Shown: one piece after another, positions 12,524 through 64,000 of the stretch
Position numbering within the stretch: position 1 is the stretch's first letter
Layout: the number at the start of each line of letters is the position of its first letter
From: Octopus vulgaris
Lineage: Eukaryota
Length of the DNA stretch: 64,000 bases
Assembly: GCA_951406725.2 (NCBI GenBank)
Contig: OX597816.1
Span: 157,294,001-157,358,000 of the forward strand
Direction: 5' to 3'
Made by a program: the position numbers and the translations under genes
Notes under the pieces: model-generated
Told to the model about the DNA's origin: nothing
Databases searched by the model: none
The model's input: the letters and a program-made list of their open reading frames with translations, nothing else

Positions 12524-13129
12524 TATATTTGTATATATATATGATATATATGTATATATATATGTATATATATATATATATATATATGTATGTACATATA
12601 TATATATATATGTATGTGTATGTGTATATATATATATATGCAACTTATAAACAAGGGCAAAGGAAAATTATTTCTATGCCAATATGCTGATAACAGACTT
12701 TTATATCGTCAATTTCCACATATTATTATATACCCACTACAGAAATACGTTGTGCTGAAGTCGAGGAAAGCTAGCCAACAGATTTTTTTTTAAAGTTCGT
12801 TATTTCCATATTGAATCAATTTAGGAATTAATCTTATAATAGATTTTTTCCTCTTCAGTAGAAAATATGAATAGAAATAAATGAAATACTTATATGCGCC
12901 CATGGAAAAAGAAAACCGAAGCAAAAATCATGAGTACACATAAGTACCCCAGATATATCTAAATATAAAATCCTTTGGTTAGCCTCAGCACACGTGTGAA
13001 CTGTTCTCCACTACAGCTTATAGTGGTTACCAGTTCCTATAGCGAATAGTAATAAATCTACTACTAATATAGGATGAAGTTTTTTTACAGAAAAAATTCA
13101 TCCTATATTAGTAGTATATATATATATAT

Positions 13130-15547: not shown

Positions 15548-15912
15548 GGGCGGAGAGCTGGCAGAATCGTTAGCACGTCGGACAAAATGCTTAGCGGTAT
15601 TTCGTCCGCCGCTACGTTCTGAGTTCAAATTCTGCCGAGGTCGACTTTGCCTTTCATCCTTTCGATGTCGATAAATTAAGTACCAGTGATGCACTGGCGT
15701 CGATATAATAGATTTAATCCGTTTGTCTGTCCTTGTTTGTCCTCTCTGTGTTTAGCCCCTTGTGGGTAGTAAAGAAATAGTTATTTCGTCTACCGCTACG
15801 TAATGATTTCAAATTCCGCCGAGTTCGACTTTGCCTTTCATCCTTTCAGGGTCGAGGAAATAAGTACAAGTTACGTACTGTATCGATATAATCGACCGGC
15901 CTCCTTCCCCCA
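15548..15912 (+). mobile_element. Abundant tRNA-derived SINE (family A), dimeric copy
   Basis: gagctggcagaa.cgttagcacg head, B-box gagttcaaattc, core gtcgactttgcctttcatcctttcggggtcgataaattaagtaccag (resembles the Meta domain, from memory), internal tail tagccccttgtgggtagtaaagaaata. A degenerate copy lies at 14340-14490. Confidence 0.9.
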
Positions 15913-16258
15913 ATTTTAAGAAACGATTTTAGCAATTTCTGAAGTTTACTCGGAATATTTTATTTGCTGGCCATTTAATCTGCGCTTGCGCTGAGGATTT
16001 GAAAAATTATAATATATCAGGATGAGACACGTGTTATTTGGGCTCTAATTTATATGCTAATGTTTTGGCGTATCTGCTGATGAGATCTTCGCCTAGCAGA
16101 TTATTTAGTTTGCTAATTAAAGTTCGGAACCTGAGGTCCGGCTGCAAAACACGGTAAATGTTTTTATTCTTCATTCCCTTCGAAATTGCTCTTAGCTGTG
16201 GTTTGGACTTTGTGACTATTCTTTCTAGCATGGTAGGCAACCTGTTAAGGTTTCGTCT

Positions 16259-17800: not shown

Positions 17801-18047
17801 GGGGACGATTTGGTTATGGCGCTGATTGTAGCAAGAAAAAATGTTTCCTAATAACTGATGTTATTGATGTTCATTCTCAATAAACACTTCTCTGTTGATA
17901 GAGATGCTCAGTAAATATATTTTAAATATTTTTGTGTGTGTGTTTGCGTGGGTGTGCGTGTGTGTGTGTTACACTTTCTTCCACTCTTTCTTCCATACCT
18001 TTGCCTTTCCCTTGGATAACACTGGTGGCGTGGAGAGGATAGGCCGG

Positions 18048-18255
18048 TATGCCGGGCGAAATGCTTAGCGGTATTTCGTCTGCGTTACGTTGTGTGTTCA
18101 AATTCCGCCGAGGTCGACTTTGCCTTTCATCCTTTCGGGGTCGATAAATTAAGTACCAGTTACACACTGGGGTCGATGTAATCGACTTAATACCTATGTC
18201 TGTCCTTGTTTGTCCCCTCTGTGTTTAGCCCCTTGTGGGTAATAAAGAAATAGGT
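18048..18255 (+). mobile_element. SINE family A copy ending in the Tx1-like tail
   Basis: Same core as 15548; ends tagccccttgtgggtaataaagaaata (18226-18252). Confidence 0.9.
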
Positions 18256-18367
18256 ATGCATGGGCGACTGCTGGTCTTCCATAAACCACCTTGCCCAGAC
18301 TTGTGACTAGGAGGGTAACTTTCTAGGTGCAATCACATGGACAGTGTCGTGACCGAAGGGGATCCCA

Positions 18368-23101: not shown

Positions 23102-24284
23102 TGTACTCCTATAACCTACCCGTGTACTTCAGTGTGTACAATCAGCGTCTGACTACACCACCTAAACAAGGATATGCTGACATTGGCAAACTTAAAATTA
23201 TCTTCGTACCGTTTTCATAAACTACTGGTGCCACAAGACGATTTGAAGAACTGGAAGGAAGTGTTAGCGTCACTGATTCCGCTTTGGCTGTAGCTGATGA
23301 GAGAAAGAAGACGACCACGAGGATAATGATGACGACGTCGAAGAAGTTGATGATGATGATGATGATAACAACACTGATTAGTTTACTGTCGCCAATTGAG
23401 AGACTAAAAATATTAATATTCTTGATATCTTTCTAATCAATACATAAAGGCGAGTTTAATAACCGTGAATTATTCCAGCAGCGTTACAATATCGACTCTG
23501 TCTCTTTCACTTTCTCTCTTTGTCTCTCTCCCCCCTCTTTTACTCTCACTCTCTAAATAAATATATATATGTATATATATATTTCTCACTTGTTCTTTCT
23601 TCAGAAAAAAAAATCTGGTTTTGTGAGACTATTGATCTCATAAAGAATCATTAGTGTGTTGAGTTTGTTATTGTTCTCTTTTGTCATTTGCAGTTCTTGT
23701 TTTTCCATTTAACTTTTTATTCTGTTTTTCATAGCAATTGCTTCTTCTTGGTTTTTTTTCTTTGTTGTTGTTTTTCTTCCTTTTTGTATTAAGTGATTTT
23801 TTCTTCCTTAGAATATTGGAAACGTTCGTCTATGGAAATGACAAAAACAAAATTTCTGGAGGAAAGACTTCTAAGATAGTTTTAACATTAAAAAAAGTAA
23901 TAAAAGTTGGTTTTAATTTGTTTACAAATTAGAATAACGACCAGCACGACAAAGAACGTTGAGTGAATCTTATAAACAACAGCTTGTTAGATTTTCCTGA
24001 AAAATTTTTTCTTGTTTTTATTTTATCATTTTTTTATTGACTTTAACAAAATAACGCAGGTCTAACGTAAGTGGAACGTAATAGCAACTTATAAGTGAAA
24101 CCAAAAGGTCCTAACACCAATAATGTCTCTCACGTTACGTTCCTGTGACAGGCATGTCAAACTGAATGGCGTTAGTTTACATTGCTAAAAATCAAACATT
24201 GTCGTAGTTCAAAAAAAATAGACGGATTACTTTACCTAGCAATAAATTATTGCTTATTAATTTGATACCATATTAATTATTGGT

Positions 24285-24995
24285 TTCAAATTCTACCATA
24301 AGGCCATCAGTTTCGAAGGTGCGGGTAAGTTGATTACCTTGACCCCAGTGTTCAACAGGTACTTATTTTATCGAACCGGAAGGATGAAATGCAAAATCAA
24401 TCCCTGCTGGCATTCAAACTTAGAACGTAAAGAAGGAAAAACATCGCTAAGCATTTTGCCTGACGTTTCTGCCAGCCCGCCGCCTTAGTCACCGTATTCT
24501 TTTCTATTCTGGGCACAAGGCCCCAAATTTTGGGGGAAGGGATCAGTCGATTAGATCGACCCCAACACACAACTGGTACTTAATTTATCGACCCCGAAAG
24601 GATGAAAAGCAAAGTCGAGCTCGGCGGAATTTGAACTCAGAACGTAAAGGCAGACCAAATACGGTTAAACATTTTGCCCGGCGTGCTAACGTTTCTGACA
24701 GCTCGCCGCCTTAGTCACAATATTAATTATTACTTAGATATGTAGCGGCCTAGCTTACTTACCTATTTCTTTATTACCCACAAGGGGCTAAACATAGAGG
24801 GGACAAACATGGACAGACATAGGTATTAAGTCGATTATATCGACCCCAATGCGTAACTGGTACTTAATTTATCGACCCCGAAAGGATGAAAGGCAAAGTC
24901 GACCTCGGCGGAATTTGAACTCACAACGTAACGCAGACGAAATACCGCTAAGCATTTCGCCCGGCGTACTAACGTTTCTGCCAGCTCGCAGCCTT
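24285..24995 (-). mobile_element. Cluster of three SINE family A units
   Basis: Repeated ctggtacttaatttatcgaccccgaaaggatgaaa; tail complement tatttctttattacccacaaggggcta at about 24764-24790. Confidence 0.9.
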
Positions 24996-28777: not shown

Positions 28778-29200
28778 GCGGTGAGCTGAAATGTTAGCAC
28801 GGGCGAAATGCTTAGCGGTATTTCATCTGTCGCTATGTTCTGAGTTCAAATTTCGCCGAGGTCGACTTTGCCTTTCATCCTTTCGGGGTCGATTAAATAA
28901 GTACCAGTTACGCACTGGAGTCGATATAATCGACTTAATCCTTTTGTCTGTCCTTGTTTAGGACAGACAATGTTTAGCCCCTTGTGGACATTAAAGAAAT
29001 GAGAAACGTTACCATGCAAAGCGAAATGCTTAGCGGTTTTTCGTCTGACTTTACGTTCTGGGTTCAAATTCTAAAGAGGTCGACTTTGACTTTCAACATT
29101 TCAGGATCGATAAATTAAGTACCAGTTGCGTACTGGGGCCGATCTAATCGACTGACACCACTCCTGAAAAATTTCGGGCCTTGTGCGTAGAGTAGAAAAG
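28778..29200 (+). mobile_element. SINE family A dimer
   Basis: Two cores with an internal tagccccttgtgg tail. Confidence 0.9.
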
Positions 29201-29655
29201 AATATATGTAATAAGCATCTCAAAATTAGCTAAAAACAGCCAGAAAACCGAAATCAGTGTTATTGAATCCTTGAATATTAAACAATGTCGGATCCTTAAA
29301 TCGTGCCGTATATTATCGGTGAGTTACCCTCGCCCACGTCGTCATCGAGGTCGTTGGCGTAGTTATTGTTGTTGTTCTTGCTGCTGCTGCTGCAGATGAT
29401 GATGATGCTGATGATGATGTTGTTGTTGTTGAAGTAGGTATTGTTATTTGCTCACAAGGGAACACCGAATTAGCAGTTCTATGATGAATGCAGTTCCAGA
29501 GGGATTCCTTCTCCTTGTTTTGAGAGTATCTAGTATTGCTCTTAAAAATGTGTAATTACTGCTTTCGAAACAATGGGCTCTGAAGGGAAACATTTTGGTT
29601 ATAATCTCCAACACTAACCAAGTGAAAAACACACGCGAGCACACACACATACACA

Positions 29656-30849: not shown

Positions 30850-32564
30850 TTAGGGGAGAAGAGTAACCTCGTATGAATCTAATCGCTAAATGTCTCGTGT
30901 TTAACGTGTTTAAACAGTTCCATTTATAAAAACGCAAAGAATACAGAAAATGGAGTCTTGCACATTATAAGGTTGATGTTACTTTGTTGAAGCGTTAGAT
31001 GTGTATGGGATGTGATAATCAGTTATTGAAACTGGAATGATAGCAATACCATAACCTTATAAAAAAGAATGATGAGGTAATGCAAGGTAGATAACTGTAT
31101 TCATGGTAAACAACTCTACACATAAAATTGAGCTGACAAGGTACATAACTCTTAATGTATTTAATATATATTTATTCAAGTGGGGATAAATATTATCTCT
31201 TAATTTGTATTCGTTTTGTGTCAAAAATTGCAATATTTAATGCGATAAAATCTGCATCGGTTCAAAAGAAACACATACTGGTTTCTAAATATACTTACAA
31301 TTGACATGGACTTGCTAATAAATATAAACAATATCAGTTATTTTATATCGTTTCTGTTTTTTTAATATTTCTCTCTCTCTTTCATATTTTTTTTCTTTTT
31401 TTTCTTTCTGTTTTTCCTTTTGCATTGGTAACTTGTTGCTAAATTTGTCACTATCAATTGAATCACTCTCCGATATATTATTGATGCTCATTTTTATCGA
31501 CTCTCGGTGCTCGAAGAATACTTTGACACCAGCGAGGTTTGAAATGAAAGCATATAGATGTAACTAGTTTGCAAAGCAATTTACACAGTGCTGCACCCAT
31601 ATGACGACAGCTGCCACAACATCAATTATAATTGTTTAATAACATTGCGTACAAGTTGCATTGAATTGTCCTTAAGCCTTGAAAGCAAACGGTTGAGTCA
31701 ATGCGGGAGAATAGTCATCAGAATGGAGAGTCTTAACTAAACAACACCATTTTTGTTTTGCCATCCATAAATCAGTTTATTATGTGGAGAAGAATTAACA
31801 GTGTAATGGGCTAAATATTTAGTTACCTCATAAAAACATGCCCCTCACTGCTTTATGTGTATAATTATTTATCTATATATAATTATTTATCTATGTATCT
31901 ATATATCTATTTAATTGCTTATTTATCGACTTATTTATCTATTTATTTATTCACTTAATAATGTATTTATTTAATTATCTATTTAGTTATCTATTTATCG
32001 ATTTTTTAATTGGTTTATTTACTTACTTCTCCTTTCATCTTTTTAGGGATCGGTAAACAAAAAACAAGAATAGCACTGGCACCGGTATTGATTTAATCGA
32101 ATGTTACTGTTAGGAAATGGGTGATTTTGTGCCTTTGTTTGCAAACCATTTGTGCCTATGCTACAAACTATTTGCATAATTTATTCCGCTACTTTAACTT
32201 CTGACTTCAAATCCCGCCATGGTTAAATTTCCCTGTCGCCTTCTCAGAGAAGATACACTCATTGACAAATGCTGGTATTGATGTAATCGACTAGGCATAA
32301 CATTTCAAAATTGCAGGTCTCATGCCTAAATAATAAAACTGCATTTGTTATTTGTGAGGAACGATAACAAGTGCAACTGCTAAAACATCAGACCTACTAT
32401 CATGTGTTATTTAATTATGTTCCTCGATAGACTTAGATCAAATAATCCCGGAGTTGCCTTTGTCTCCCAGACTTCCCTAACCAGGAACTAGAATCGGTTT
32501 GTCTAAACCCATTCCTCTGATGTATGGACATCTGGCAGATAATCTCCCGGATTATACAATATTC

Positions 32565-32962
32565 TCTTCTACTCTAGGCGCAAGGCCCTAAATTTTGGGG
32601 GAAGGGGGTTAGTCGATTAGATCGACCCAGTATCCAACAGGTACTTAATTTATCGACCGCGAAATGATGAAAGGCAAAGCCGACCTGGGTGGAATTTAAA
32701 ATCAGAACATAAAGACAGACGAAATACCTATTTCTTTACTATCCACAAGGGGCTAAACACAGAGAGGACAAACAAGGACAGACAGACGGATTAGGTCGAT
32801 TATATCGACCCCAGTGCGTAACTGGTACTTAGTTTATCGACCGCGAAAGGATGAAAAGCAAAGTCGACCTCGGAGGAATTTGAAATCAGAACATAAAGAC
32901 AGACGAAATACCGCAAAACATTTCGCCTGGCGTGCTATGGTTTCTTCCAGCTCGCCGCCTTC
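32565..32962 (-). mobile_element. SINE family A dimer
   Basis: Two cores; tail complement at about 32728-32760. Confidence 0.9.
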
Positions 32963-33211: not shown

Positions 33212-33845
33212 AGGCGGCGAGCAGGCAGAAACGTTAGCACGCCGGGCGAAATGCGTAGCCGTATTTTGTCTGCCGCTACGTTCTGAGTTCAAATGCCTCC
33301 AAGGTCGACTTTGCCTTTCATCCTTTCGGGGTCGATTAAATAAGTACCAGTTACGCACTGGGGTCGATGTAATCGACTTAATCCCTTTGTCTGTCCTTGT
33401 TTGACCTCTCTGTGTTTAGCCCCTTGTGGGTAGTACAGAAATAGGTATTTCGTCCGTCTTTACGTTCTAAGTTCAAATTCTGCCGAGGCCGACTTTCCCT
33501 TTCATCCATTCGGGGTCAATTATATAAGTACCAGTTACGCACTGGAGTCGATATAATCGACTTAATCACCTCCCCCATGCACAAGCTACCCTTGTGGCAA
33601 AAATTTGAAATCGTATTTATTTTATATTCCATTAGGGTGGTGAACTGCCAGAATCGTTAGCACGCCGCGGGGAAAATGTTTAGCGGCATTTCGTCCATCC
33701 TTACGTTCTGAGTTCAAATTCCGCTGAGATCGACTCTACCTTTCATTCTTTCGGGGTTGATGAAAAAAGCACCAGTCGAGTACTGTGGTCAATGTAATTG
33801 ACAACCCCCCGACGCACTAATTTCAGGTCTTGTGTCTATAGTAGA
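33212..33845 (+). mobile_element. SINE family A dimer plus monomer
   Basis: Three cores; inverted relative to 32565-32962. A further degenerate minus copy lies at 34060-34230. Confidence 0.9.
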
Positions 33846-34243
33846 GAATAAAAGATTATTTTATATTCTATTGAATATCATCATCACGTTGTCTGCATCT
33901 GAAGTAATGGGGATACCTTATATTGTGGTTGCATAATAAGTATTTATGCAATCACAATGTCACACAGAATCATCTGCAACTAGCTTCGAAAATTAGCGAG
34001 AAATGTACTGGCTACTGATAAGTAATTATTGATAAGCTAGTAATTATGGATGACTTCAGGAGTTAGTCAATTTCATTGACCACAGTGTTTCACTGGTACT
34101 TCATTTATTGATCCAGGAAGGTGAAAGGCAATGTCGACCTCTGCAGAATTTGAACTCAGAACGTAACGGCAGACGAAATACTGCTAAGTATTTAGTCCAC
34201 ACGCTAATGATTCTGTCACCTCGTTACCTTAACAACAACAACA

Positions 34244-35128: not shown

Positions 35129-36860
35129 TACGAGGGGGTACCCAAAAGAAACCGGAATTTTGCAATTTTATTCATTTAGAAGGCGGCGAGCTGGCAGAAA
35201 CGTTAGAATGCTTAGCGGCATTTCGTCTGCCGCTACGTTCTGAGTTCAAATTCCACCGAGGTCGACTGAGCCTTTCATCCTTTCGGGTTCGATTAAATAA
35301 GTACTAGTTACACACTGGAATCGATATAATCGATTTAATCCGTTTGTCCTTCCTTGTTTGCCCCCTCTGTGTGTAGCCTCTGGTGGGCAGTAAAGAAATA
35401 AGAAACGTTAGCACGCAAGGCGAAATGCTGAGCGGTATTTCGTGTATTTACGTTCTGAGTTCAGATTACGCTGATGTCGATAAATTAAGTACCAATCGCG
35501 TACTGGAGGTCGAGATAATCGACTGGCCTCCTCCCCCAAAATTTGGGGCCTTGCGCCAAGAGTAGAAAAGAATATTAATTTAGAAGGCGGTGAGCTGGCA
35601 GAAACGTTAGCACACCGAGCGAACTGCTTAGCCGTATTTCGTCTGCTGCTACGTTCTGAGTTCAAATTCTGCCGTGGTTGACTTTAGTTTTCATTGTTTC
35701 GGGGTCGATGAAATAAGTACCAGTTACGGACTGGAGTTAATATAATCGACTTGTGCTCTCCCCCAAAATTTCAAGATCTTGTGCCCAGATTAGAAATAAT
35801 TATCTTATTTACTTGTTTACACTTTTGCCGCCTTCAAAGTATTCTCCATTTGAAGCAGCACGTCGGGCCAGGCGAATTTTACACTGTTCGAAGTAGTCCT
35901 GAAACTCTTGCGAAGTGATACCTTTTAACGCTTCCGTCGTTATTTCGTTATTATCATTATTATTTTTTTTTTTTTGTATCTCTTCCACATCTGCAAAACG
36001 TTTTCCTTTAAGGTCTTTTTTTTTCATTCAGGGGAACAAAAAATATCGCAGGTTGCAAAATCGGGTGAATAGGAAGGGTGAGTAAGCGCGGTCATGCCAT
36101 TTTTGTTTAAAAGCTATCTCATACTCAAGGCGGTGTTCACAGGTACATTGTCGTGATGAAATCACCACTCTCCACTTTGTCACAGGTTGAGGTGTGTTCG
36201 TATCACTGCGTCTCGCAAATGCTTCAGAACTGCCATGTAAAATATCTGATTAAAGTTTGACCAGGAGGTACAAATTCTGTGTGCACAATTCCTTTCGCTT
36301 CGATGAAACAAATCAGCATTGTATCGACATTGGGCTTCACTTGACACACTTTGGGGGGACGTGGTTACAGCAGATACTTCCATTGACTTGATTGCTGCTT
36401 CGTTTCCGGGTCGTAGCCATTGCACCAGCTTTCGTCACCAGTGATGACCATTGAAAGTTCCGGATCAAATTCCAACTGTTCTTTCAGTTTACGACACGCA
36501 TTCAGTCGAAACTTTTTTTGATCTTCCGCGAGAAAGCGAGGCACAAATTTTGCTGAAACTCTTTTTATTCACAATTCCTCGCTCTCAAAATTCGTTGGCA
36601 GGAGCTCCAGAACACACCAGTCATATAAACAAGGTCATCAATTATCCGACAGTCGTCCTCCAAGATCAGTTTTTTCATTCATTCAGGAGGTCGACGGTTG
36701 CCCTGAACGAGGTTGGTCATCAAGCGACAAGTGACCATTGCCAAAGCTCAAAAGTCACTCATAAACTTGTGTTTTGCTCATGCCAGCGGCTTTGTAAGTT
36801 GTTTTGAGCATGACAACTATATCAGCCGCCATTTTCCCCAGCAGAAAACAGAATTTCACT
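35129..36860 (-). mobile_element. Decayed mariner (DD34D) transposon interrupted by SINEs
   Basis: TA|CGAGGGGGTACCCAAAA terminus; minus strand LKGKRFADVEEI...FQDYFEQ...NGEYFEG, a YSPDL-like region near 36050-36085 and a VTGDE motif near 36430-36445. Confidence 0.85.
35179..35795 (+). mobile_element. SINE family A units nested in the mariner
   Basis: aaggcggcgagctggcagaaacgttag heads at about 35179 and 35584. Confidence 0.9.
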
Positions 36861-39520: not shown

Positions 39521-39789
39521 TCCAGCTTGTGGGTGTCCACCGTGCAGAGGCGTGTCTGTTTGCTTGTGAGTTAACGTATGTGCTGGTCAAACTCTTTGTC
39601 GGACTCCAAGGAATCGGTGGCGGGACAAAATTGGGGAACTGGGAATTATAGTCATGATGGGATACACAGGTATGATAGGATGCTGAGAAGCAAATGATTT
39701 TAAAGATCTCCCAGCACCCAGGCATTTCCTTGAATAGGAAATGCCTGGGTAGTGGGAGTTATTTAAAAGCAATCTTTTCTCAGCTAATT

Positions 39790-40444: not shown

Positions 40445-43982
<3,538 letters not shown>

Positions 43983-46048
43983 GAGCAAGCACACCAAAAG
44001 TGGTGAGAAGTCTCGGCTCGAAAGAATGCTAATGGAAACTGAGAAAAGTCTACATCAGTCCCATGAAAAGGAGAGAGCAGATAAAGAAGCTTGGGTAATA
44101 GAAAATATAAAATCAAACCCTAAAGCTTTCTTTAAGTTTGCCAAAGAGACAGCCACAGTGCACCAGAGAATAGGACCTCTCTTCCAAAAAGATGGCTCTC
44201 TCACAGGAAATCCCACGAGGATAAGTGAAATACTGAACGAACAGTTCCAAAGTGTATTCACTACACCTCTAGGACACAGGCAAGTAAACAACCCAGAAGA
44301 ATTCTTTGCCACTTTACCAGCGGCCAAAGAGACAAAAATTGAGTACATCAACATCGAAGAAGATGATATCACACTAGCCATTGATGAGATTGACACAAAC
44401 TCAGCTGCTGGACCTGATGGATTCCCAGCGATCCTTCTCAAATCGTGCAAACGAGCCCTTGCAAAACCGCTACAGCTTCTTTTTCAGAGCTTTCTTGCAA
44501 GTGGTAAGCTCCCAGTCAAACTGAAAGAGGGGGTAATATGCCCTATCCATAAGGGAGGTAGCAGAGCAGATGCTAAAAATTATAGGCCTATCTCTCTGAC
44601 CTCACACATCAGCAAAGTCATGGAACGAATAGTCCGTAAGAAACTAATCATGTTCCTTGAAGAAAATGACTTACTGTCTGACACCCAGCATGGATTTCGA
44701 CCAGGTAGAGGCTGCCTAACACAGCTCCTGCAACACTATGACTGGGTGTTGAAACAGCTACTAAATGGCTCAAATGTGGATGTAATATATCTTGACTTTG
44801 CAAAAGCCTTTGATAAAGTCGACCATGGTATGATCTGTCACAAACTGCGTGGTCTCGGCATAGGCGGGAAACTTGGAGAGTGGCTGCACAACTTCCTAAA
44901 AGACAGAAAACAGGCAGTTGTGAGCAATGGAGCCACCTCCAGGGAAACGCAAATAACAAGCGGTGTCCCACAGGGCACTGTCTTGGGGCCACTGATGTTC
45001 ATAGTGGCCCTTTCAGACATGCCTTCAGTTGCTACGATGACCACCCTTGCTAGCTATGCAGATGACACAAAGGTCTCCCACGCAATACAGAACCCTGAAA
45101 ATATTGCGCATCTGCAACATGAGCTGGACACAATATACAGGTGGGCTGAGGACAACAACATGCAGTTTAATGCAGGTAAGTTCCAGGCCCTGCGCTACTG
45201 GCACACAAAGGTAAATGACGTGAAGACTGGATACACTGGCCCAGGAAGAATTGCAATCCCTGAGTCAAAATCAGTGCGTGACCTGGGCATTGACATGAGC
45301 AATGATGCATCTTTCCAAATGCATATTGCTAATCTGGTGATAAAATGCAGACGGCTAGCTGGATGGATTCTCCGAACTTTCAGAACAAGAGAGAAGGAGA
45401 CACTGATGGTCCTATGGAAAACATTTGTCCTCAGCCGCTTGGACTACTGCTCCCAACTTTGGTCACCACACAATATAAAACAAACAGCAGAACTCGAAGC
45501 AACTCAGAGAAGCTACACAAAGAAAATCGTCTCAATGCAAAATGTCAGCTACTGGGAAAGACTGAAGGTATTAAACCTCTTCTCCCTGGAGCGGAGGCGG
45601 GAGAGATATGCAGTAATATACATCTGGAAAATCCTGGAGGGTCTTGTCCCAAACTTTGGCATTCAAAGTTACTCCAACCGCAGAACGGGGCGCCGCTGCG
45701 TGGTGCCAAGGATTCCAACATCACCATCAAAATACAGGTCCAGATACTGCAACAGCTTGGGTTTCAGAGGACCACAGCTTTTCAACATCCTCCCTAAATG
45801 CCTGAGAGACTTACATGGTGTGGATGTGGGTTTCTTTAAAACTAAACTGGATCTCTTCTTGTTGGGAGTCCCAGATGAACCTACCTCACGACAGGAGACA
45901 CGGATGCGGGCAGCAGCATCGAACTCCCTTGTTGATCAAGTGCCACGTATCAGAGGTGGATTCACAAACTAGTGTGGCTCATTCAGCGGTGGTGCCCCAG
46001 CATGGCCGCGGCCTTCGGGCTAAAACATTTTTAAGGATTTAAGGATTT
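43983..46048 (+). mobile_element. 5'-truncated CR1/L2-group LINE, uninterrupted RT frame to 45972, (TTTAAGGA)2 tail
   Basis: Same motifs as 41366-43550, clearly a sister subfamily; followed by (TA)n 46049-46290. Confidence 0.95.
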
Positions 46049-46070
46049 ATATATATACATATATATATAC

Positions 46071-46105
<35 letters not shown>

Positions 46106-46106
46106 C

Positions 46107-46281
<175 letters not shown>

Positions 46282-46596
46282 TATATACATTTCCACACAT
46301 AAGGTATTCACGCACACACATTATTTCAAAGCCTTCAATTTTCTTTATCGTCCCGTTGTCATTCTTGCGCGCCCGTACAGGCCATCTGCATCATCAAAAA
46401 GCATCAATGGCGTCACACATTTTGTCATTTTCCCAGTAACGCTTCCCGAGATCAGTTTTCACCATCTCATCCTGTGTCACCAGACCATCCATCCCTTTTC
46501 CTATTTATTACGTACTTCTTTCATTACTGTCTTATTTCTTCCATACTACATTTGAGTCCTTTTCTATTTAGTTTCTCACACGCTAATTCTCCTCAC

Positions 46597-47720: not shown

Positions 47721-48798
47721 CTATGAAAAATAAAATGTAAGAATACTCAGATATTACTGAAATATTTTGGAATTTTATTATGTATGTATCACATTATTAG
47801 AAGTCTAATAAAAGGATATCAGATAATTGTCACAAAATCAATATTCAAACACAATTATCCGTAAATATAAAAGCGAAATCTTTTTCCCTAAAATGACAAA
47901 ACTGTAAATGTCAATGGCAGTGTACCTTCAAATTTTACTTCAATAATGATAGAAACTGTAAAAGGATTCATAATTGAATCTGTAGTATATATAGCTAATG
48001 TTCCCTCATATCTTTATTAATTTCATTCTTATTAATGTTCAAAATCTATTATGAATTGTAAATTTGACGATGATATGGTTATCCAAGATGTGTTTTCACA
48101 CTAATGTACAATAACAGAGATAGGGATAGATTTGCAAATGTAAAAAGAAACTAAAACCTAATGGACTATAGATATGTAATGACCTGCTTCAAAATTAGTA
48201 TATATATATATATATATATGTTCCAATAAAATGTCATTTAAGCATAAGTGATTGCTAATATCATTTCTCTTGACTCCCATTTTCAACATATTATGATGCC
48301 TAGTGTAATTAAATGAAAACACTTTGCTGCGCCCCTTAGCAGAAATAGTCCTTTTCTTGACTTAGCAGAAATAGTCCTTTCCTTGACTTTTGAAAAGATT
48401 GTCGGTTTGTTAGTGCTGAATCAGGTATATCGGATATTTTCGAAAATATAGTATAAAAAGACTTTCTTAAAAAGCATTTATTAAACTCTCTTCACACATT
48501 GTCAACTTATAAATGTATACAGTTAGAAGTAGAAAGTTTAATGGGGAAAGAAATTAGAATCTTTGACTAGAATTTCATTGACATTCTATCTCCTGTACTC
48601 ATTTATAGATGACGTGATACAGCTTTCTGCAGTCCCTTGAAATAAGTCTTATTTGATGTTCGTTTTCAGTAATAAAACTCAGTTTCTTCCTATTACTAAT
48701 ATATATATATATATATAATAATAAATATTAGGGAATAAATCCAAATTTACAGGGAAAAATCAGATTTAGGATTGAATCCAATTTTATAATAAAATATA

Positions 48799-49002
48799 AT
48801 ATAATATTAATTAGAGACAAAACCACTATTATGCAAATCAAACAAAGAAAGACTTAATCCAATACATAAAAATTTTATATAAATTAAATATAATTAAGAT
48901 ATCTTAATTATATTTAATTTATATAAAATTTTTATGTATTGGATTAAGTCTTTCTTTGTTTGATTTGCATAATAGTGGTTTTGTCTCTAATTAATATTAT
49001 AT
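48799..49002. repeat. Perfect 204-bp spacerless palindrome
   Basis: Checked block by block; centre between 48900 and 48901. Confidence 0.95.
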
Positions 49003-49745
49003 ATATATAAATGTTTGTCTCAACATGCTATGCTTTTAGATACAAATTCATAACTACGATGGTGTTTATATTCAGTCTTGTGTTCACAATGTCGTAGCAG
49101 ATGTAGAAAAATAAACAGATGCTGAGTTGCTATAAGTTGCTTCAATCAAACAGTGATGTTATGAACTATTAAATTCTCTTTTGTGCTTTTATACTTCTAA
49201 TATCTATCAATGTTACTTTAAATTTGAAAGCAGCAAAACATTTTCCAAGTTGTTTTAAAATACTAAATGTTTAATCTATTAACTGAATGCGACAGAATAT
49301 ATCTATTTAAACCACAATCATAAAATCATAGGGGACTTGGTAACTTCGTACTGTAACCGATTTTACATTTCAGGAAATTACAACCAACCAACTCACCAAT
49401 TTGAAATGCCACTCTAATTTGATTTTAACAGCAGTTTAGAGAACATTGCTGGCGATTTTGGTACCAATATTATTAATGAAATATTGACGTCCTTCGTTTT
49501 CAAAGTAAATGTTTTATAACTATTTTTCCATATAAGAGTGGATTATACACATTTTTCCCTTGATATCTTTACATATCTTTGAACCATGCATGTATGAGAC
49601 ATAACACACTTTGGATTTCTGTTGGCTGCTTCTTCTGAATTTTCCAGTTATTTTCCTTTCAATAATATCTTTCATTACAGATTCCTCACAAATTTTCACT
49701 CTGTCTGCATCATCAATTCCCATCATTACATATACAAACCAGTGT

Positions 49746-52842: not shown

Positions 52843-53010
52843 TCAAAATTTTGACTCAAGTCCGGCAATATCGGAGGAGGGACGTAGGGATTCCGAAGGG
52901 TTGAAAAGAAAGGTATTTCGCGATGGAATTTGAATTCAGAACAAAGGACAGACGAAATGAGGCTAAGCATTCTGCCCGGCGAGCTAACGACTCTGTCAGC
53001 TCAGCGCCTT
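52843..53010 (-). mobile_element. Degenerate SINE family A
   Basis: ggaatttgaattcagaac...gacgaaat...gctaagcattctgcccggcgagctaacg. Confidence 0.7.
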
Positions 53011-53024
53011 TACATTATATAATA

Positions 53025-55463
53025 CTAGCAGCATAGCCCGGCGTTGCCCGGGTATGTAAGAAACTTTGTCGATAAGCAAAGCCCCTTACCTTTTTACCCT
53101 TTTTTGTGCTCATTGAACCGTTATTTTGTAAAATGAAGCATAAAAGGCATTAAGGTATTCAAGGCACCGTTCCCTTGCATGCATGAAGAAAATCTATGAC
53201 AGTCAAAGTGCATTTTCTGGTTTTGTTTAGCACACCCAACCCAGTTCTGCGGGATCAGTGTCGCGACGGGAGCGCATGGGTTGGGAGTTTGACAAGCAGA
53301 GGTGATAAGGTTGCACATGCCGGCCCTTTTGACACCCCACCCGAACCCAAGTTGGGTTCAGACCACAGCTAAGCCCTACCTAATCCTAACTTAAGTCTAG
53401 CGAAAGGGGGCTCAGGAGCCTCTAGTAGGCAACGACTAATCCCGATCTAGTCCTTTCCCTCTAGGGAATGAAAGCGCATGTGTAGGTTGCAACGTCTTCT
53501 CTTCACTTCAATACTTCTGTGTATATGACGTTCCTAGCTGTCCCTTTGGACGAAAACATGAAACAGCTTGGCGAGCTCTCCTCTGTTGTGGTGTTTCGGC
53601 AGATCGAGCCGTGACTGTGTTTGCGGCGTCAGCAGCTTGGTGAGCTCTCTTCTGTTGAGGTGTTTCGGCAGATCGGGCCATGGCTGTGTTTGCGGCGTTA
53701 GCAGCTTGGCGAGTTCTCCTCTGATGTGGGGTTTCGACAGATCGTGAATGGCCCTTTGTTTGGGTTCTCGCGAGCTCTGCGGATTGAAGCACAGGAAGAA
53801 GCCCGCATGTTTTGGCTGGACTGTTGCTCTTTCGTCAACCTCGAGCGGAGCGAAGATCTATACGCTACGGCACTTGCAAGTCGGGTAGAACGGTCGCTAG
53901 TGGTTTCAGATGCCCGAGCAGCGGCAGAACGGGAAGCTTTTTGCGAGAGGCGCAAGGCGGTTTCCTCGTGGGTCTCGCGTGCCCTTCTAGCCCTAGCAGC
54001 CGATGCCTTGGCCGTCCGAGGGCTGAGGAGGGTCCTTCTCTTCTTGGGTGGCATTTTGGTGGATAGCAATGTGTTTGACAAAGGTGTAATAAAAAGGAAC
54101 ACGTGGGTAAGTATCCCAAAATCTATAAAAATGTACAAAAACAGGAAAAAAGCGGGCAGCAATGTCAGTGACAACAACGAAAAAGCGAAAAGTGACCAAA
54201 CTGAATGGAAAAGGTTTTTTGGTGCACACGACAAAAGCGGCTTATAATAAACCAAGAGTTTGCAAGTAGCGTCCGAGGACCCTTAGGGTACGTCAAAAAT
54301 TTAAGGTAAAACGTTTGGGGTGGTAGTTATAAAGAAAGTTTAAACAAAAAAGTATTCGAATAACTTGTGGCTGCAGCAGCGATTAGCAGAAGTAGGCCAA
54401 CGTGTGAAGCGAGCATGTGTGAACCGAGAGAAAGAAGTGGGAGTCACAAACTATACGCGCACAACTGAGTGTGTCAGTGCATGTGATTGACCAAAGGGTG
54501 TTTAATTGAGAGCATTGTTCACCGTTTGGGGAGCCAATGGGATGAGCTGCAATCATCGTGTCTAGGGACACGCGCGCACACAACCGCAAAAGCATCTACA
54601 GCCCAACATTGCTCGGATCTGAAGCAAAAGGAAAACATATGCCATTTCTTGTAACCTTTATGATAAAAGCGGCAAAAATCGACTAAATCGCCCGAAATCC
54701 GCCAACTATTTAACAAAAGTCAGTTTTGTTGGGTTCGCATGGTCGGTCTCAAAGTGATACGGTTTTGTCGATTTCTCCCAATACTTGTTAACTGCATTGA
54801 CAAAAGGTCGTTAGTTTGACATTTAATGCAAACTTGATGTCCAACATCGGTGCAGGGAAAATCTATGTGAACGTTCAGAAAATATCGCAGAAAAATCGGT
54901 TTGCTATATGTGCCACATATGATGTAATTAACCGATTTTTTCCAGTAATAACGTATCCTATTGGAATCAAAAGGGCCATATAGCTCCTTGGAGCAGACAT
55001 GATGCTCGCTGTGAATTTCAAAAAAAAATTCCTGCCAATTTGTTAAAGATATTGTCGAAAATATGTCATCTTGAATTTGAACGCGATTTCCCAAAATGGC
55101 ATGATTTTATCGATTTTTTCTGATGATAAGGTATTGTATGGAAAACTAACGTCAGAATTAAGTTCTTTAGGGTAACATTAAGCTTCACCATGAGTTTGGT
55201 GAAAATCGATTGCAAGTTGCGAAAACTACGATGGAAAATGTGTTGCATATGATAAGCTTAGATTCTCGACCTCATGTCGAATTTATCGATTTTTTTCAGA
55301 ACTGGGAGAACTTTTCAAAATTTTCGCTGCGTTAGTTTTGAATTTTGACATTGGGCTATGTGTGTGTCAAGTTTCATCAGAATCGGTTGAAAGCCGTGGT
55401 CAGGGTGAGGGTACAACCTGACAGACACACAGACAGACAAACTGCCTTTTATATATAGAGAGA
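53025..55463 (-). mobile_element. Internally deleted Helitron retaining the start of a RepHel-like ORF
   Basis: A|TCTCTCTATATATAAAA start, hairpin cccgg(g)caacgccggg, CTAG|T end; ATG at 54054 gives MPPKKRR...RARETHEETALRL and 23-aa ARSAETPQQRRARQAADAANTVT repeats. Confidence 0.85.
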
Positions 55464-56165: not shown

Positions 56166-56855
56166 TCTTTATATATATAAAACTTAAAATGTGTGTATGT
56201 CTGTCTGTTTCCCTAAAATTTGAGAACTACACAACCAATTTCATTCAAATTTTACACATGCCTTACTTAGGGTCCGGGGAGTGTCATCGGCAAAAAATTT
56301 TTTTACCTTTTTGCCTAGGACGAGCCAACAGCAATATTATATCTTCTCCATTACGATTCCCTAAAACTTGAGAACTATTTTGAACTTTTTGCCTAGGGCG
56401 AGCGCACAGCAATATCATATCTTCTCCACTACGATTCCCTAAAACTTGAGAACTACACAACCAATTCCATTCAAATTTTACACATGCCGTACTTAGGGTC
56501 CATGTAGTTTCATGGGCAAAAAAAATGTTCAACTTCTTGCCTAGAGCGAGCCCATAGCAATATCATATCTTCTCCACTATTTCAGTATTACGTGTTAAAA
56601 GTGAAACAAAAACGTTTCTCTATTTTATGTCAGATACTTTCACTTTAACAATAAAAATAATAATAACAATTGAATTATATGTAGTAAGTAATAATTTAAA
56701 TCAAACTAAAGTAACATAACAAAAGTAAAAATAGCAATTGGTATAAAGTTGCATCAATGATTTGAACTTGAATAAGTGGTTTCACATGAATGGGAATAAA
56801 TTAAAAATAAAATTAGCGTGCAGAATTCGAATAGTCCAGATGAATAATAAAAAAT
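56166..56855 (+). mobile_element. Helitron-like 5' portion with internal tandem duplications
   Basis: A|TCTTTATATATATAAAA...tgtgtgtatgtctgtctg start like 55463; repeated ccctaaaacttgagaactac and agcaatatcatatcttctcca units; no 3' end seen. Confidence 0.6.
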
Positions 56856-56861
56856 TAAATT

Positions 56862-56909
56862 CAAGAAAAGACTATTGTCTATAAAGTATACAATGTAGAG
56901 AAAAAAGGT
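56862..56909 (+). mobile_element. Upstream piece of host Tx1-like ORF1 (element C)
   Basis: QEKTIVYKVYNVEKKG parallels RRTIKYKVFMNGGRK (element A) and KKRIIYKTYDTTTK (element B); only 16 codons. Confidence 0.55.
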
Positions 56910-58587
56910 CGCGTTTTTTTGCGCTCAGTAAAATTCGGTTAAAAAAGAAAAAAGAACAAAAAGTGAATTGTGGTTGCGGAATTGGAACGTCGGTTGGTGC
57001 GGTTTCGCGTCGCACTGGTTCTGTGCGTCGCACGTTTTCTGTTCGGGAGGCCGTTTTTCGGTCTGAGGCGACTATGAGCCGCCTCTACCAAACGGATGAG
57101 ATGGAAGGGAGAAATTTCTCTGAAAATTCGTCGACATCTGAGAAGGAGTTGGCGGTGAAAAAAATGGAAAGCACCTACGCAGGTATAACGAAGAAGTCAA
57201 CAGAAAAAGAGATAGACCTGGCTAAGTTGACGGACTTCCAGGAGTTCATGAAGGAGGAGGAGAACGGAGAGGTTGAGCTGTTGCCTCTAGCAGCGCGCGG
57301 AGACTGGTTCTATCGTAGAACCATTAAATATAAAGTATTTATGAATGGAGGTCGAAAAATGGAAGTGATTAACATGGAAGCAATTGAAGAGGCTTTCAAA
57401 CAGACAGGAGAAGAAATTGTGTACATGACAAAAGGATTAGAATATGGAACCATAACGGTACAATTTAAAAGTGAGAAAGCAGCCAGGAATATAGCAGCCA
57501 AGGTGGTGAGTACAGAAAAGTTTTACTTGTTCCCTTCGTATTTGAATAGAAGGACCACCAGAATTAGGGTGGAAGGAATACCTCCACACCTAGAGGGCGA
57601 ATTAATAACGGCTGCGGTTATCAAAGGAAATGAAGATAAAGTGGACATCCTCCACGCCATTATGAAATATGAAGGCGTGAGAGGTGCCACACTAGTAATG
57701 AACATACAGACGGAGGCGGAAGTTATAGAAAAGCTTACGGACAGTATAAAAACTGGAAATATTATTATGAGAGTGTGGGTGGAGGGTAGGGCGCCCAGGT
57801 GCTACAAGTGTGGCCTGAGGGGTCACATAAGAGCCTACTGCCCTCCCCCACCAAAGGAAAAAGAAAAGGAAATCGTCGCGGAAGCCCCAAAAGAGGAAGA
57901 AACCAAAGAGAACCAAAGGGAAAAAGAAACGACAGAAGAAGAGGAGATGCAACAAGAGTGGGAAGAAGGAAGAAAAAAGAGAAAAAGAAAGAAAAAGAAA
58001 AACTGTGCGAAGCCCCAACCCACCCCAACACCACCCGCACCCTCTGAATCCCACCCTTCCCCCGCAGACAGTGAACCCACCCGCTCCCCTCCAACAAGAA
58101 AACAAAAGAAAAAATAATAATACAGACAGACAAGAGTTTGAAAACGAACCCAGGCCGAACATTTATATTGTGACTGAACAGAAAGAGGTTGAAAGGGTAA
58201 TGGAGGAGTATGAATGGTATGAAATGGATGGGACCAGATATGCAGTGCTGGAAAAGAAGAATATAGATGAGTTTGTGTTGAGGTGTGAAAGGGAGAATTG
58301 GGAGGTGAAAGATACAAGAATGAGCGATGAATTCGTGGAATATATGGAGGACAGTTTCGGAGTAAGAATGGATATGGATGGTCTTCGTATTGGGAATGAA
58401 CATTCAGGTGACAGTGAAAACAAAAGGACAGGTAAGTGATGCTGGCGGAGGGGGCCGTTAGCATCGCTTTCATATTATCATTTTTTCATTTTCATTTGCT
58501 CATAAATTTAATCATATTGTTCTATGTCCCCCATGTTTTGTTATGTCCGCCATTCTTCGTAGCCCCTGGTGGGTAATAAAGAAATAA
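56910..58587 (+). mobile_element. ORF1-only (HAL1-like) Tx1/L1-clade element A
   Basis: T-rich 5' end, ORF1, about 150-nt 3' UTR, then the same terminal motif as element B; no ORF2. Confidence 0.8.
57074..58439 (+). CDS. ORF1 nucleic-acid-binding protein with CCHC knuckle (one frameshift near 58110)
   Basis: RRM-like YGTITVQFKS, IRVEGIPP, VEGRAPRCYKCGLRGHIRAYC, charged tail; frameshift in an A-run. Confidence 0.8.
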
Positions 58588-58813
58588 CATGGAGGAAATC
58601 AATTTTTTGCGTTATTAGTAAGTTGATATATATTTTGCTCTCGTACTATTATCTCTGTTATTATATACTGTTGGTCTACCTGTTTTGTCTATTGTTGTCT
58701 AACTGACGAAGTCAGCCTTCGCGCGAAGACTTCGCGTTGGTGTTCCCCCTCCGTGGGGGAAAACTACAATTAATTTGGATTTACCAAAGGCTTGTTAAAG
58801 CCATTTGTTCAAG

Positions 58814-60198
58814 ATGGAGTCCCCCATCTCTTATTCGCCCGTGACGAGCGAGGATGAATACCCGGCGTTGTCGCCAAGAAAAAAAGAGGCGTTGTCGCCA
58901 AGAAAAAAAGAGGCGTTGTCGCCGAAGAAAAAAGAGGCGGCGTCGCCCAAGAAAATGGAAAAACCAGTACCAGCATCAACTCCAGCGAAAAAATTCGCTG
59001 AAGTGGCTGGGAAAAAGATTAAAAAAATAAATATAGAAAATTTGGAAAAATTTGCAGACTGTGTAAAAAAAGAGGGCACAGAAGTGACTGTGGCCACAAA
59101 CATACAAAAACATGACGATATAGAAAAAAAAAGAATAATATATAAAACTTACGACACAACGACAAAAATGATCCAAAAAATCGAAGAAAAAAATAGAGTT
59201 TTGTCTAAAACCTTTAATGGATAAAATAACGTATATAAACAGAGGAAAAAGATACGGCACAGTGGAGGTGCGTTTTACTACGGAGGAGATAGCGAAAAAA
59301 CTATCGATGGAGCCGATCAAAGCAGAAAACATTGTCTTACTACCATTGTATAAAGGAAAAAGGACGTCGAAAATTTCAATGAACAACATACCGCCAGAGG
59401 CAGATGCAGAATGTCTGGTGGCAGCAGTGATGGTAGGCCTGGAGGAAAAAATAAACATCCTCCAGGCCACAGTGGAGGAAGAGGAGTTTTGGAAAGGGCA
59501 GAAAATAGTGATAGCCATTCAGGCGGAGGTGCAAACACTGGAAGAAATTCCAGAAACGGTAAAGATTAGTGAAGACGAGAAAATAACAGTTTTCGTGGAG
59601 GGCAGGAAGCCGAGGTGCTTCGGCTGCGGCAAGAAGGGTCATGTAAGGGCGGAATGCTAACCCCAACCCAAACCGCAGGAAGCACCTAAGCCAAAAGAAA
59701 AAGAAGATAATGTGTCACCAGAAGCAGCGTCGGACGGCCCAGAAGGGAAGACTGAAGGTGTGGAGGTGACGGTGACAGCAGAACCAGCGGCGGAGGAAAA
59801 AAAGAGCGAGGAAAAGATAAATGAGGAGGGGTGGGCAAAAATTACCGGAAAAAAAAAAGAAAAACGGAAACCACCCCTCCCAGAGTAATTTTAAAAAGAA
59901 AAGAGAGTCAATGAACTCGTATATGGCCGTAAAGGCAGCAAATAGCAGACTCGGAAACGTGTTGGCAGCCATGGCCAAAGTGGAGAAAGTAGTGAAAAAA
60001 AACGACTTTGTAATTTACAGAATAGGCCGGAAGGATTACGGGCGGATAAAGTCAGAATTCTTCCATGACGTAGGCCCACTTAGATTGGATGTGACATCTC
60101 CACATATATTCGAGGGCCTACGTCAGACTCCCCACGAGGCCCAGAAAAAGAGTTAGAAGAACAAGAGAAAACCGAACCACTGATATAAAGGTAAGTAA
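58814..60198 (+). pseudogene. Element B ORF1, broken by frameshifts and a stop
   Basis: Pieces 58805-59224, 59217-59660, 59821-60156; YGTVEVRF, NIPP, VEGRKPRCFGCGKKGHVRAEC; N-terminal ALSPRKKE repeats. Confidence 0.85.
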
Positions 60199-63100: not shown

Positions 63101-63594
63101 ACTTCCAGAAGTCTCTGGCATGGCAATGCTACAGAGGAGCTCTACCTGTTCGGGATAAACTCGCAAGGCACGGTGGCCAAGACAGTCCGATATGTCCAAG
63201 ATGCGGGTGGGATAGGGAAACCGTCCCGCACGCTATTGTTCATTGTCCGGACGTGTCTGAGGTGTGGGTTTATGCCGAACAGCTGTTGTCAGGTACACGA
63301 AGAGTACAGCTGTCGACTGAGTCGATTACAAAAATTGACCCACCGGATTTCCTCGTGAATGAAGGTAAGTTTCGTTTTCTCGTTGTAGTAGCAATTGCGA
63401 AAGAGGTGATATGGAAGACGAGAATGAAAGGTTTACAGTCAGGCAAGTTCATCTCCGGCCCTGGTTTGATGAATTATTTCATCTTTCACCTGAAAAGGAA
63501 GATAGGGCTGGAGAGAATATGCCTGACTAGGAGAGTGTATGAAGAACGATGGAAGGATGTAGCACGAAAGTTGCGAGTGAAAGATACAACATAA
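60198..63594 (+). pseudogene. Element B ORF2: APE endonuclease, RT and C-terminal CCHC; frameshift near 62545, YADD changed to YADY
   Basis: LNVRGL, IYAPN, GDFN, SYLDR, SDH, YWKLN, APGLDGLP, FRPITLLN, LDQSKAFDRV, VRQGCPLSP, KGGLG, CPRC...ETVPHAIVHC. Confidence 0.92.
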
Positions 63595-63838
63595 ATGTAA
63601 TATCAAGCGCAACCAAAAGTATCAGTGGGGAGGCGGGGCTCGTGGGATCCGAGCTAAACCCGCACCCACTCCACCCGTAATGTCTTCCGGTCTGTCCCAT
63701 CATTCGATTTCTGTCCATTTATTGTAATTCATGAAAATTTTTAAATTCGATTTATTGCAAAAACCCATTCGTGTGTCTGACCCCATCATCAGATTGTATT
63801 GTCCCATCTATGTAGCCCCTTGTGGGTAATAATAAAAC

Positions 63839-64000
63839 AACATGGAGGAAAGCACCTTCGAAAAGTGTCTTGGTGCGACTATGAAAGGTATCTAATCAGA
63901 GGCGGTAAATTCGCCACAATAGAAGCAAGGTTCGAGTCAACGGAGCGTGCAAGGGAGTACTCGACTCGAACTTGCAAAGTGGAAATATTTTATTTTTACC
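63839..64000 (+). mobile_element. Downstream piece of host Tx1-like ORF1 (element C), runs off the window
   Basis: NMEESTFEKCLGATMK then, frameshifted, YLIRGGKFATIEARFESTERAREY, matching YINRGKRYGTVEVRFTTEEIAKKL of element B. Confidence 0.75.

Follow-up and report, generated by a model that had tools for sequence, protein, structure and literature searches.

The locus analyzed here raises the question of which enzyme copies a SINE, and whether the 3′ end that this SINE shares with two neighboring LINE-like elements points to that enzyme. Octopus genomes are rich in SINEs and L1-Tx1 elements (PMC8967140); in the accessible text of PMC13282606, SINEs account for 11.6% in Octopus vulgaris and L1-Tx1 elements for 56 Mb, with 80 families, 13 of which were recently active. 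A sequence-only reading of 64,000 nucleotides from this species (hereafter, the window) had proposed that a Tx1/L1-clade enzyme recognizes a short tail common to the most abundant SINE and two Tx1-like elements, A and B, and mobilized the SINE. Our analysis partly supports this interpretation. The reverse transcriptase (RT) of B's L1-clade lineage probably recognizes a tail containing a predicted hairpin with a CUUGU loop, copying the SINE and element A in trans.

The SINE is approximately 230 nt long, non-coding, and multicopy, with flanking duplications and 5′-truncated copies. Twenty monomers are recognizable in the 64 kb, of which 18 were aligned and two are fragments (52893-53010 and approximately 32190-32339). 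A single head and body carries several tails, the divergence starting immediately after a GTCGAT..ATCGAC palindrome. Tail T, the subject of this work, ends seven monomers; tail R is found whole in six and truncated in one, tail V in two, and the remaining four have no clear tail or a decayed one. The abundance attributed to this SINE therefore applies to the group, whereas the shared tail itself is present on only 7 of the 20 monomers. Two T copies stand alone. The copy at 18053-18252 (plus strand) is 5′-truncated and lies between two copies of the 7-bp duplication GGTATGC (18046-18052 and 18253-18259), whereas the copy at 24764-24993 (minus strand) is full-length, 96.7% identical to the first, and flanked by a 9-10-bp duplication, GGTAAGTAA. 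An A box was detected at the head of the full-length copy; a strict B-box pattern missed its target, and a B-box-like motif, GAGTTCAAATTCC, can be read in the sequence. Rfam gave no tRNA match over two SINE heads and nothing beyond microsatellite noise over the window. We take the body to resemble Deu/Nin, and the group is presumably the same as the abundant octopus SINEs OK/OR1/OR2 or "tRNA-Deu"/"tRNA-Core"; OK, OR1, and OR2 were reportedly described by Ohshima and Okada in 1994. A 9-base motif from the SINE body was absent from the searchable supplements of PMC4824008 and PMC4758252. Since several tails occur on one head and body, tails appear to have been swapped from LINE to SINE, and we infer that the SINE acquired tail T when the 3′ module following its body was exchanged. 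The accessible portions of PMC5786205 and PMC11481361 provide precedents for such tail swapping.

The other five of the seven T copies belong to composites of two monomers, in which the T tail lies inside and a different tail closes the outer end. On the plus strand, the T monomer extends to 15779 in the composite at 15550-15915, followed by the remainder of an older SINE from its GGTATTTC-type site; to 29001 in 28780-29203 and to 35400 in 35182-35573, where older R-tailed SINEs resume at AGAAAC; and to 33443 in 33213-33612, where an older V-tailed SINE resumes at GGTATTTC. On the minus strand, the composite at 32562-32958 comprises a T monomer (32958-32729) and an older R-tailed SINE resuming at GGTATTTC, with a 15-bp duplication around the whole. 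Resumption at GGTATTTC is thus seen in three composites (mutated in one) and at AGAAAC in two, and a C precedes each junction; the duplications of both solo copies likewise start with GGTA after a C. The two monomers of the 32562-32958 composite have private substitutions in common over approximately 70 nt, which suggests local conversion or a long duplication guided by homology. Tails R and V also occur outside the composites, on solo R-tailed SINEs at 33633-33855 and 35584-35803 (both plus strand) and on two tandem SINEs at 24280-24712 (minus strand), one with each tail, which have the same head and body and the same loop with another stem. Unlike those of the T copies, the duplications at R and V tails are AT-rich and start near ATT. 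R-type SINEs were also observed to form tandem clusters at one and the same AT-rich duplication (24280-24995, 33213-33855, and 35182-35803), suggesting that one site was reused.

The composites can be read as T copies inserted into resident SINEs. Left (T) monomers are 87% alike and right monomers 79% (10 pairs each), indicating that the T copies are of more recent origin than their host SINEs. Resident SINEs make up 3.8% of the window, and the probability that at least five of seven copies would be nested is 2e-6, or 5e-4 when the count is restricted to the five surely independent events, of which three are nested. Alternatively, the five composites may descend from two or three dimer masters that the partner of the R tail mobilized, with the T tail driving the solo copies only; we consider this unlikely, and it would narrow our claim without overturning it. 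Copied dimers would account for the outer duplications that flank whole composites (clear in three of the five) and for junctions at just two positions, but they fit poorly with the greater divergence of the right monomers, with two different right tails within one junction class, and with the recurrence of the C/GGTA start at both solo sites, which lie outside SINEs. The private changes shared within the composite starting at 32958 also fit, instead, a local insertion whose 5′ end joined by homology.

The LINE-like partners of the tail lie at the end of the window, within the ORF1 of a third relative, element C. The left piece of C (56850-56915, plus strand) aligns to positions 59-77 of an ORF1 profile, with three more codons to position 80, and the right piece (63840-64000, plus strand) resumes in register at position 81-82, then shifts frame and leaves the window. 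The left piece scores 12.1 bits against the profile, built from 19 sequences, compared with at most 4.2 in 300 shuffles; this flank is significant with the profile only, pairwise alignments being matched by 33 and 476 of 500 shuffles. The right flank is clearly ORF1 of such a relative (0 of 500 shuffles). Given that the left flank ends and the right flank resumes in profile register, A and B are placed head to tail at one site in the ORF1 of C.

Element A (approximately 56916-58586, plus strand, the 5′ boundary being approximate) contains an ORF1 at 57074-58439 with one frameshift near 58110 and a zinc knuckle, a 3′ UTR of approximately 150 nt, and the tail at 58560-58586. It has no ORF2, a HAL1-like layout of ORF1 plus the 3′ end of an L1-clade element, and no 5′ duplication was seen, which implies either a blunt join or movement of A and B as one unit. 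Element B (58599-63839, plus strand) is a full-length but disabled L1-clade element. Its ORF1 (approximately 58814-60198) has a zinc knuckle and is broken by frameshifts and stops; its ORF2 (60198-63594) encodes an endonuclease, an RT, and a zf-RVT domain, with a frameshift near 62545. The duplication ACATGGAGGAAA flanks B at 58587-58598 and 63840-63851, over 12 bp exactly and 15 bp with one mismatch, and it begins directly after the tail at 63813-63839. This places the tail inside the element, as B's own 3′ end. A (approximately 56916-56930) and B (58599-58625) also start alike, with a T run, GCG, and AGTAA, possibly a shared 5′ signal. A and B are known here from one copy each at one locus. 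Of 24 listed sequencing runs, 20 contain 0.44-0.70 of the words of A and B taken together (17 runs at half or more; four organism labels, 10 studies), a joint figure in which A is not told apart from B and structure is not resolved, so that it serves as context. No RNA run was among those listed with A and B words.

The two ORF1s are homologous at 34-36% identity, and both end in GGTAAG with an overlapping stop and ATG. In A, an unrelated 3′ UTR begins 11 nt after GGTAAG, a site that resembles the SINE target. A may therefore have formed by targeted insertion of a short tail-bearing sequence at the ORF1 stop of a relative, and an internal deletion fits equally well. A spliced origin for A was ruled out, as the donor-like GT is retained. 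We also considered whether ORF1 proteins generally end in Gly-Lys, as encoded at the GGTAAG site; only 1 of 150 hits does, many of the hits probably being fragments. The ORF1 ends read AG/GTAAGT (58431-58441 and 60190-60200), a perfect splice-donor consensus; with both strands counted, the window has 10 occurrences of GGTAAGT. At the codons homologous to the site in C where A and B are nested, the ORF1 of A itself contains a similar sequence (57372), and the lineage may target its own kind.

A search with the 27-mer at 18226-18252 on both strands of the window yielded nine matches at four mismatches or fewer and no further ones at five or six. Seven are the SINE copies, starting at 18226 and 24790 (minus strand) without mismatch, at 15753 with one, at 33417 and 32755 (minus strand) with two, and at 28975 and 35374 with four. 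The others are the ends of A (58560-58586; 26/27, one mismatch) and B (63813-63839; 24/27, the first 20 positions identical and all three mismatches after position 20). The tail is thus common to seven SINE copies, A, and B. The 26/27 and 20/20 matches claimed beforehand were both reproduced, with B diverging after position 20; the recurrence of the tail in further SINE copies held at every position named, and TGTCC motifs do lie upstream of the tail in the SINE, A, and B. The claim that the tail was retained despite divergent ORF1s is also borne out, the remaining 3′ UTRs of A and B being barely alignable. Weak homology extends approximately 35 nt further 5′ of 18226-18252; shuffled sequences scored equally high in 1 of 1000 cases for SINE and B, 43 of 1000 for SINE and A, and 44 of 1000 for A and B.

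Within the 27 nt of the plus-strand copy at 18226-18252, a GCCC/GGGU stem around a CUUGU loop is predicted, followed by AATAAAGAAATA. Seventeen aligned tails (seven T, A, B, six R, and two V) conform to a stem of 4 bp with a CUUGU-type loop, the stem being GCCC/GGGU in T tails and GGGC/GCCY in R tails while the loop is kept. Pairing is found in 88% of 68 cells, compared with 24-57% in slid controls, and double changes occur in three of the four pairs, a level reached by none of 500 shuffles; this covariation draws on about three lineages of tails, and two pairs co-change in a single T-to-R step. RNAalifold, unaided, returns the same helix. The helix is weak (-4.7 kcal/mol), and other structures are favored in longer folds of A and B. 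The GCCC-loop-GGGT structure proposed by the sequence-only reading is accordingly upheld as a predicted hairpin that covaries across tail variants, and the shared end holds a predicted conserved stem-loop, as expected of a stringent SINE/LINE pair. A strict loop/stem scan of the window, covering all but approximately 100 nt near the 5′ end of A, gave 10 hits, of which eight are tails and two unrelated, and a covariance model scan covered positions 1-56800.

The T-type ends stop approximately 12 nt past the stem in 9 of 9 cases, a nearly fixed distance, with the end of B exact to within 3 nt only. None of the nine (A, B, and seven SINE copies) is followed by poly(A), whereas poly(A) is present at several distant L1/Tx1-type relatives, for example L006, L025, L032, and L047. 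AATAAA occurs in the tails of A, B, and both solo T SINEs and could account for part of the tail conservation. It can be argued on this ground that the tail comes from this lineage but serves 3′-end formation, through AAUAAA and the hairpin, while the RT is relaxed and accepts any A-rich end. Mammalian L1 as a rule recognizes its template in such a relaxed way (PMC3747384), and the SINEU of crocodilians, whose movement is attributed to Tx1, carries poly(A) without sharing a tail (PMC4494074), both according to the accessible text of these sources. Nonetheless, the uniform lack of poly(A) is difficult to reconcile with a relaxed enzyme; the five composite T tails do not contain AATAAA (AGTAAA in three, AGTACA in one, and ATTAAA in one), and the covarying stem lies upstream of the signal. 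We regard this explanation as quite improbable.

We assign a similarly low likelihood to the view that a non-L1 LINE is the owner of the CUUGU hairpin and drives the whole SINE group, with A and B having acquired the tail from the SINE or from that LINE. This view draws on the R and V tails, which share the loop but not the type of duplication seen with T, and on the fact that no partner was found for the commoner R tail or for the V tail; RTE, CR1, and Dong-R4 elements are abundant in octopus, as the accessible part of PMC13282606 indicates. However, it would require capture of the tail by two families as distant as A and B, and neither A nor B has SINE body sequence before the tail. Moreover, the sequence-only reading would have been undermined by a better match to a non-Tx1 LINE, and none of the CR1-like or RTE-like 3′ ends in the window, two and one, respectively, matches. 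The two former are RVT_1 elements at 41124-43426 (minus strand) and 43997-46290 (plus strand), which we take to be CR1-like from their motifs; they are 77% identical, lie back to back on either side of an extended (TA)n run, and share GGTGCCCCAGCATGGCC in their 3′ UTRs. The latter, at 40517-41002, gives a weak C2H2 zinc-finger match and is presumably the C-terminal piece of an RTE-like ORF. Elsewhere in the window, a near-perfect palindrome occupies 48794-49008 (215 nt, 99%), with two weaker ones at 39682-39784 and 13052-13123, and an Arg/Ala-rich ORF at 53698-54282 (minus strand), which we assume resembles the start of a Helitron protein, lies near 69-nt tandem repeats (53564-53762).

Finally, chance likeness of an A-rich motif, suggested by the shortness of the match and the weak upstream similarity, is refuted and has practically no probability, since the best match in each of 300 dinucleotide shuffles of 57001-64000 had 7-12 mismatches, none reaching six, whereas the real sequence holds two matches, A and B, both exactly at element ends.

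The ORF2 of B, behind a separate ORF1, contains the Pfam domains PF03372 (Exo_endo_phos), PF00078 (RVT_1), and PF13966 (zf-RVT). Among the 15 solved sequences that it matched, of L1 and R2 types only, the best is human L1 ORF2p (E 2e-56, residues 3-722), with R2 at 8.5e-23 or weaker. Judged by these domains and matches, B belongs to the L1 clade. Among named proteins, those of Argonauta hians are closest to ORF2, with 63% over the RT region. For ORF1, HMMER found 225 relatives and a word-index search none; 7 of the 10 looked up bear Octopus names (three sinensis, two vulgaris, and two bimaculoides). RT trees were built with FastTree from 114 rows and with IQ-TREE from 37 of them. B, the Argonauta protein, and their relatives form a strong branch of their own (FastTree 0.999; IQ-TREE 100/99), in which the rows labeled octopod are P0055 (Argonauta hians) and P0001, the species name resting on P0055. 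Four loci flanked by U1 or U2, which served as Tx1 stand-ins in place of a labeled Tx1 reference, form a branch separate from B (80/79) on a polytomous backbone.

Tx1 ORF1 proteins have RNA-binding domains and a CCHC knuckle. The ORF1s of A and B contain a zinc knuckle, CX2CX4HX4C; the Pfam zf-CCHC match (E 0.04) is below the cut-off, and the Atlas neighbors of ORF1 are zf-CCHC, ZCCHC3-type RBD, and RRM, at 0.90-0.93. The target habit is also Tx1-like, given that A and B sit at one site in another repeat and B has a duplication of 12-15 bp, as seen at one locus, and the 3′ poly(A) typical of L1 is missing from both elements. Hence, of the proposed Tx1/L1-clade enzyme, the L1-clade part stands, whereas the RT of B falls outside the branch of Tx1-type loci flanked by snRNA genes. 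B is Tx1-like in build and habit, and belongs to the L1 clade from an octopod-containing lineage.

Beyond the window, a tail pattern scan gave no matches in viral contigs, metagenome contigs, or prokaryote genomes. In 80 distant L1/Tx1-type loci, the best plus-strand match to the 27-mer had at least nine mismatches in every case, and a tail covariance model over these loci (458 kb) returned a single minus-strand hit, close to the 5′ part of a locus, with an E-value of 0.6. The absence of the tail from all 80 indicates that it is not a general Tx1 feature. Some of these metagenome elements lie next to or within genes, namely U2 (L001 and L019), U1 (L006 and L057), and 18S rRNA (L025, L032, and L042), according to a scan for snRNA and rRNA neighbors that covered 20 of the 80 loci; the 18S-flanked elements form a separate branch in the tree.

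Whether B or A itself moved the SINE could be judged from the insertion sites and coding capacity. The T-SINE sites, C/GGTA and C/AGAAA, differ from the A/B site, which begins with ACATGG, in all seven SINE copies. Direct mobilization by the family of B, as the original proposal would have it, is therefore not supported, and A drops out as mobilizer because it has no ORF2. Given that the target sites differ, the driver of the SINE is likely a sister family rather than B; since A is closer than B to the SINE end and has no enzyme, this would be the autonomous partner of A or another sister family. Such a driver would be expected to bear an ORF2, to have a AAAGAAATA end, and to prefer C/GGTA and C/AGAAA.

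The favored reading, trans-mobilization by an L1-clade enzyme, can be laid out in steps modeled on established target-primed reverse transcription. The endonuclease would nick a preferred site and thus set the target, while ORF2p would bind the predicted hairpin in the tail, reading the loop and tolerating changes in the stem. Zebrafish L2 offers a parallel, stringent LINEs binding a 3′ stem-loop whose loop gives specificity, according to the accessible text of PMC4176376. Target-primed reverse transcription would start approximately 12 bases downstream of the hairpin, leaving a uniform, poly(A)-free end, and the 5′ end would join via microhomology or, in SINE heads, via sequence in common with the copy already resident there. 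Both the SINE and element A, with its lone ORF1, would be copied in trans by an RT of B's lineage. A broader and distinctly more tentative proposal is that, in octopods, target-specific families of an L1-clade lineage whose RNA recognition is fully stringent, needs no poly(A), and reads the CUUGU-loop hairpin drive the whole dominant SINE group, with coevolved T, R, and V tails, together with HAL1-like dependants, these elements inserting in each other's ORF1 and in SINE heads; A would perhaps derive from a tail-bearing insertion at GGTAAG of a relative's ORF1 stop.

If the favored reading is true, the octopus pair supplies an animal case for the L1 clade. In the model of Ohshima, set out in the accessible part of PMC3747384, elements of the L1 clade were originally stringent, and those of mammals and of most plants later loosened to recognize poly(A); the 27-nt element would make this model testable in animal cells. 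A candidate engine would also be named for part of the octopus SINE expansion, and an L1-type enzyme that prefers certain sites and accepts any RNA bearing so small a tail would be of interest as a gene-insertion tool. The accessible text of PMC13282606, PMC8967140, PMC4758252, and PMC4824008 contains no octopus SINE annotation that names a LINE partner. Likewise, no report of an animal SINE/LINE tail pair from the L1 clade appeared in the literature searched, which included PMC3531059 in its accessible part and lay outside Repbase, Dfam, Ohshima and Okada 1994, Akasaki 2010, and Bao and Jurka 2010.

Of the 58 SINE/LINE pairs in the table of PMC3747384, three have L1 tails and none is an animal L1-clade pair, as far as the accessible part extends. 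These three are ZmSINE2/3 with LINE1-1_ZM in maize and sorghum and SINEX-3_CR with L1-1_CR in Chlamydomonas. The octopus system resembles them in that a SINE, here of putative tRNA type, and an L1-clade LINE have in common a short 3′ end predicted to form a hairpin, with compensatory changes in the stem. It differs in occurring in an animal, in lacking a poly(A) or poly(T) stretch behind the tail, in belonging to a target-preferring lineage, and in including an ORF1-only element with the tail. Crocodilian SINEU was tied to Tx1-Mar via shared targets, SINEU having poly(A) and no LINE with its 3′ end having been found (PMC4494074, accessible part). There, as here, movement of a SINE by a Tx1/L1-clade enzyme is the proposed explanation, and both SINEs insert in another transposon, often in tandem. 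However, SINEU has snRNA heads, poly(A), and a target link, whereas in octopus the elements are linked by a common tail and do not agree in their targets. Known partners of mollusc SINEs are CR1, CR1-Zenon, L2, and Nimb, according to the accessible text of PMC11481361. With these and with L2 pairs such as ZfL2, the octopus system has in common the proposed stem-loop tail recognition and the placement of one SINE body on several tails, but its partner is of the L1 clade and tail T has no terminal microsatellite. HAL1 and other ORF1-only non-autonomous LINEs (PMC5786205, accessible part) are comparable to A, which keeps ORF1 and the 3′ end without ORF2; unlike HAL1, A ends in a hairpin tail common with a SINE and is known here as a single copy. 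Common-tail SINE/LINE systems are thus well known, and what is unusual in octopus is the animal L1-clade donor, the absence of poly(A), the target preference, and the ORF1-only dependant.
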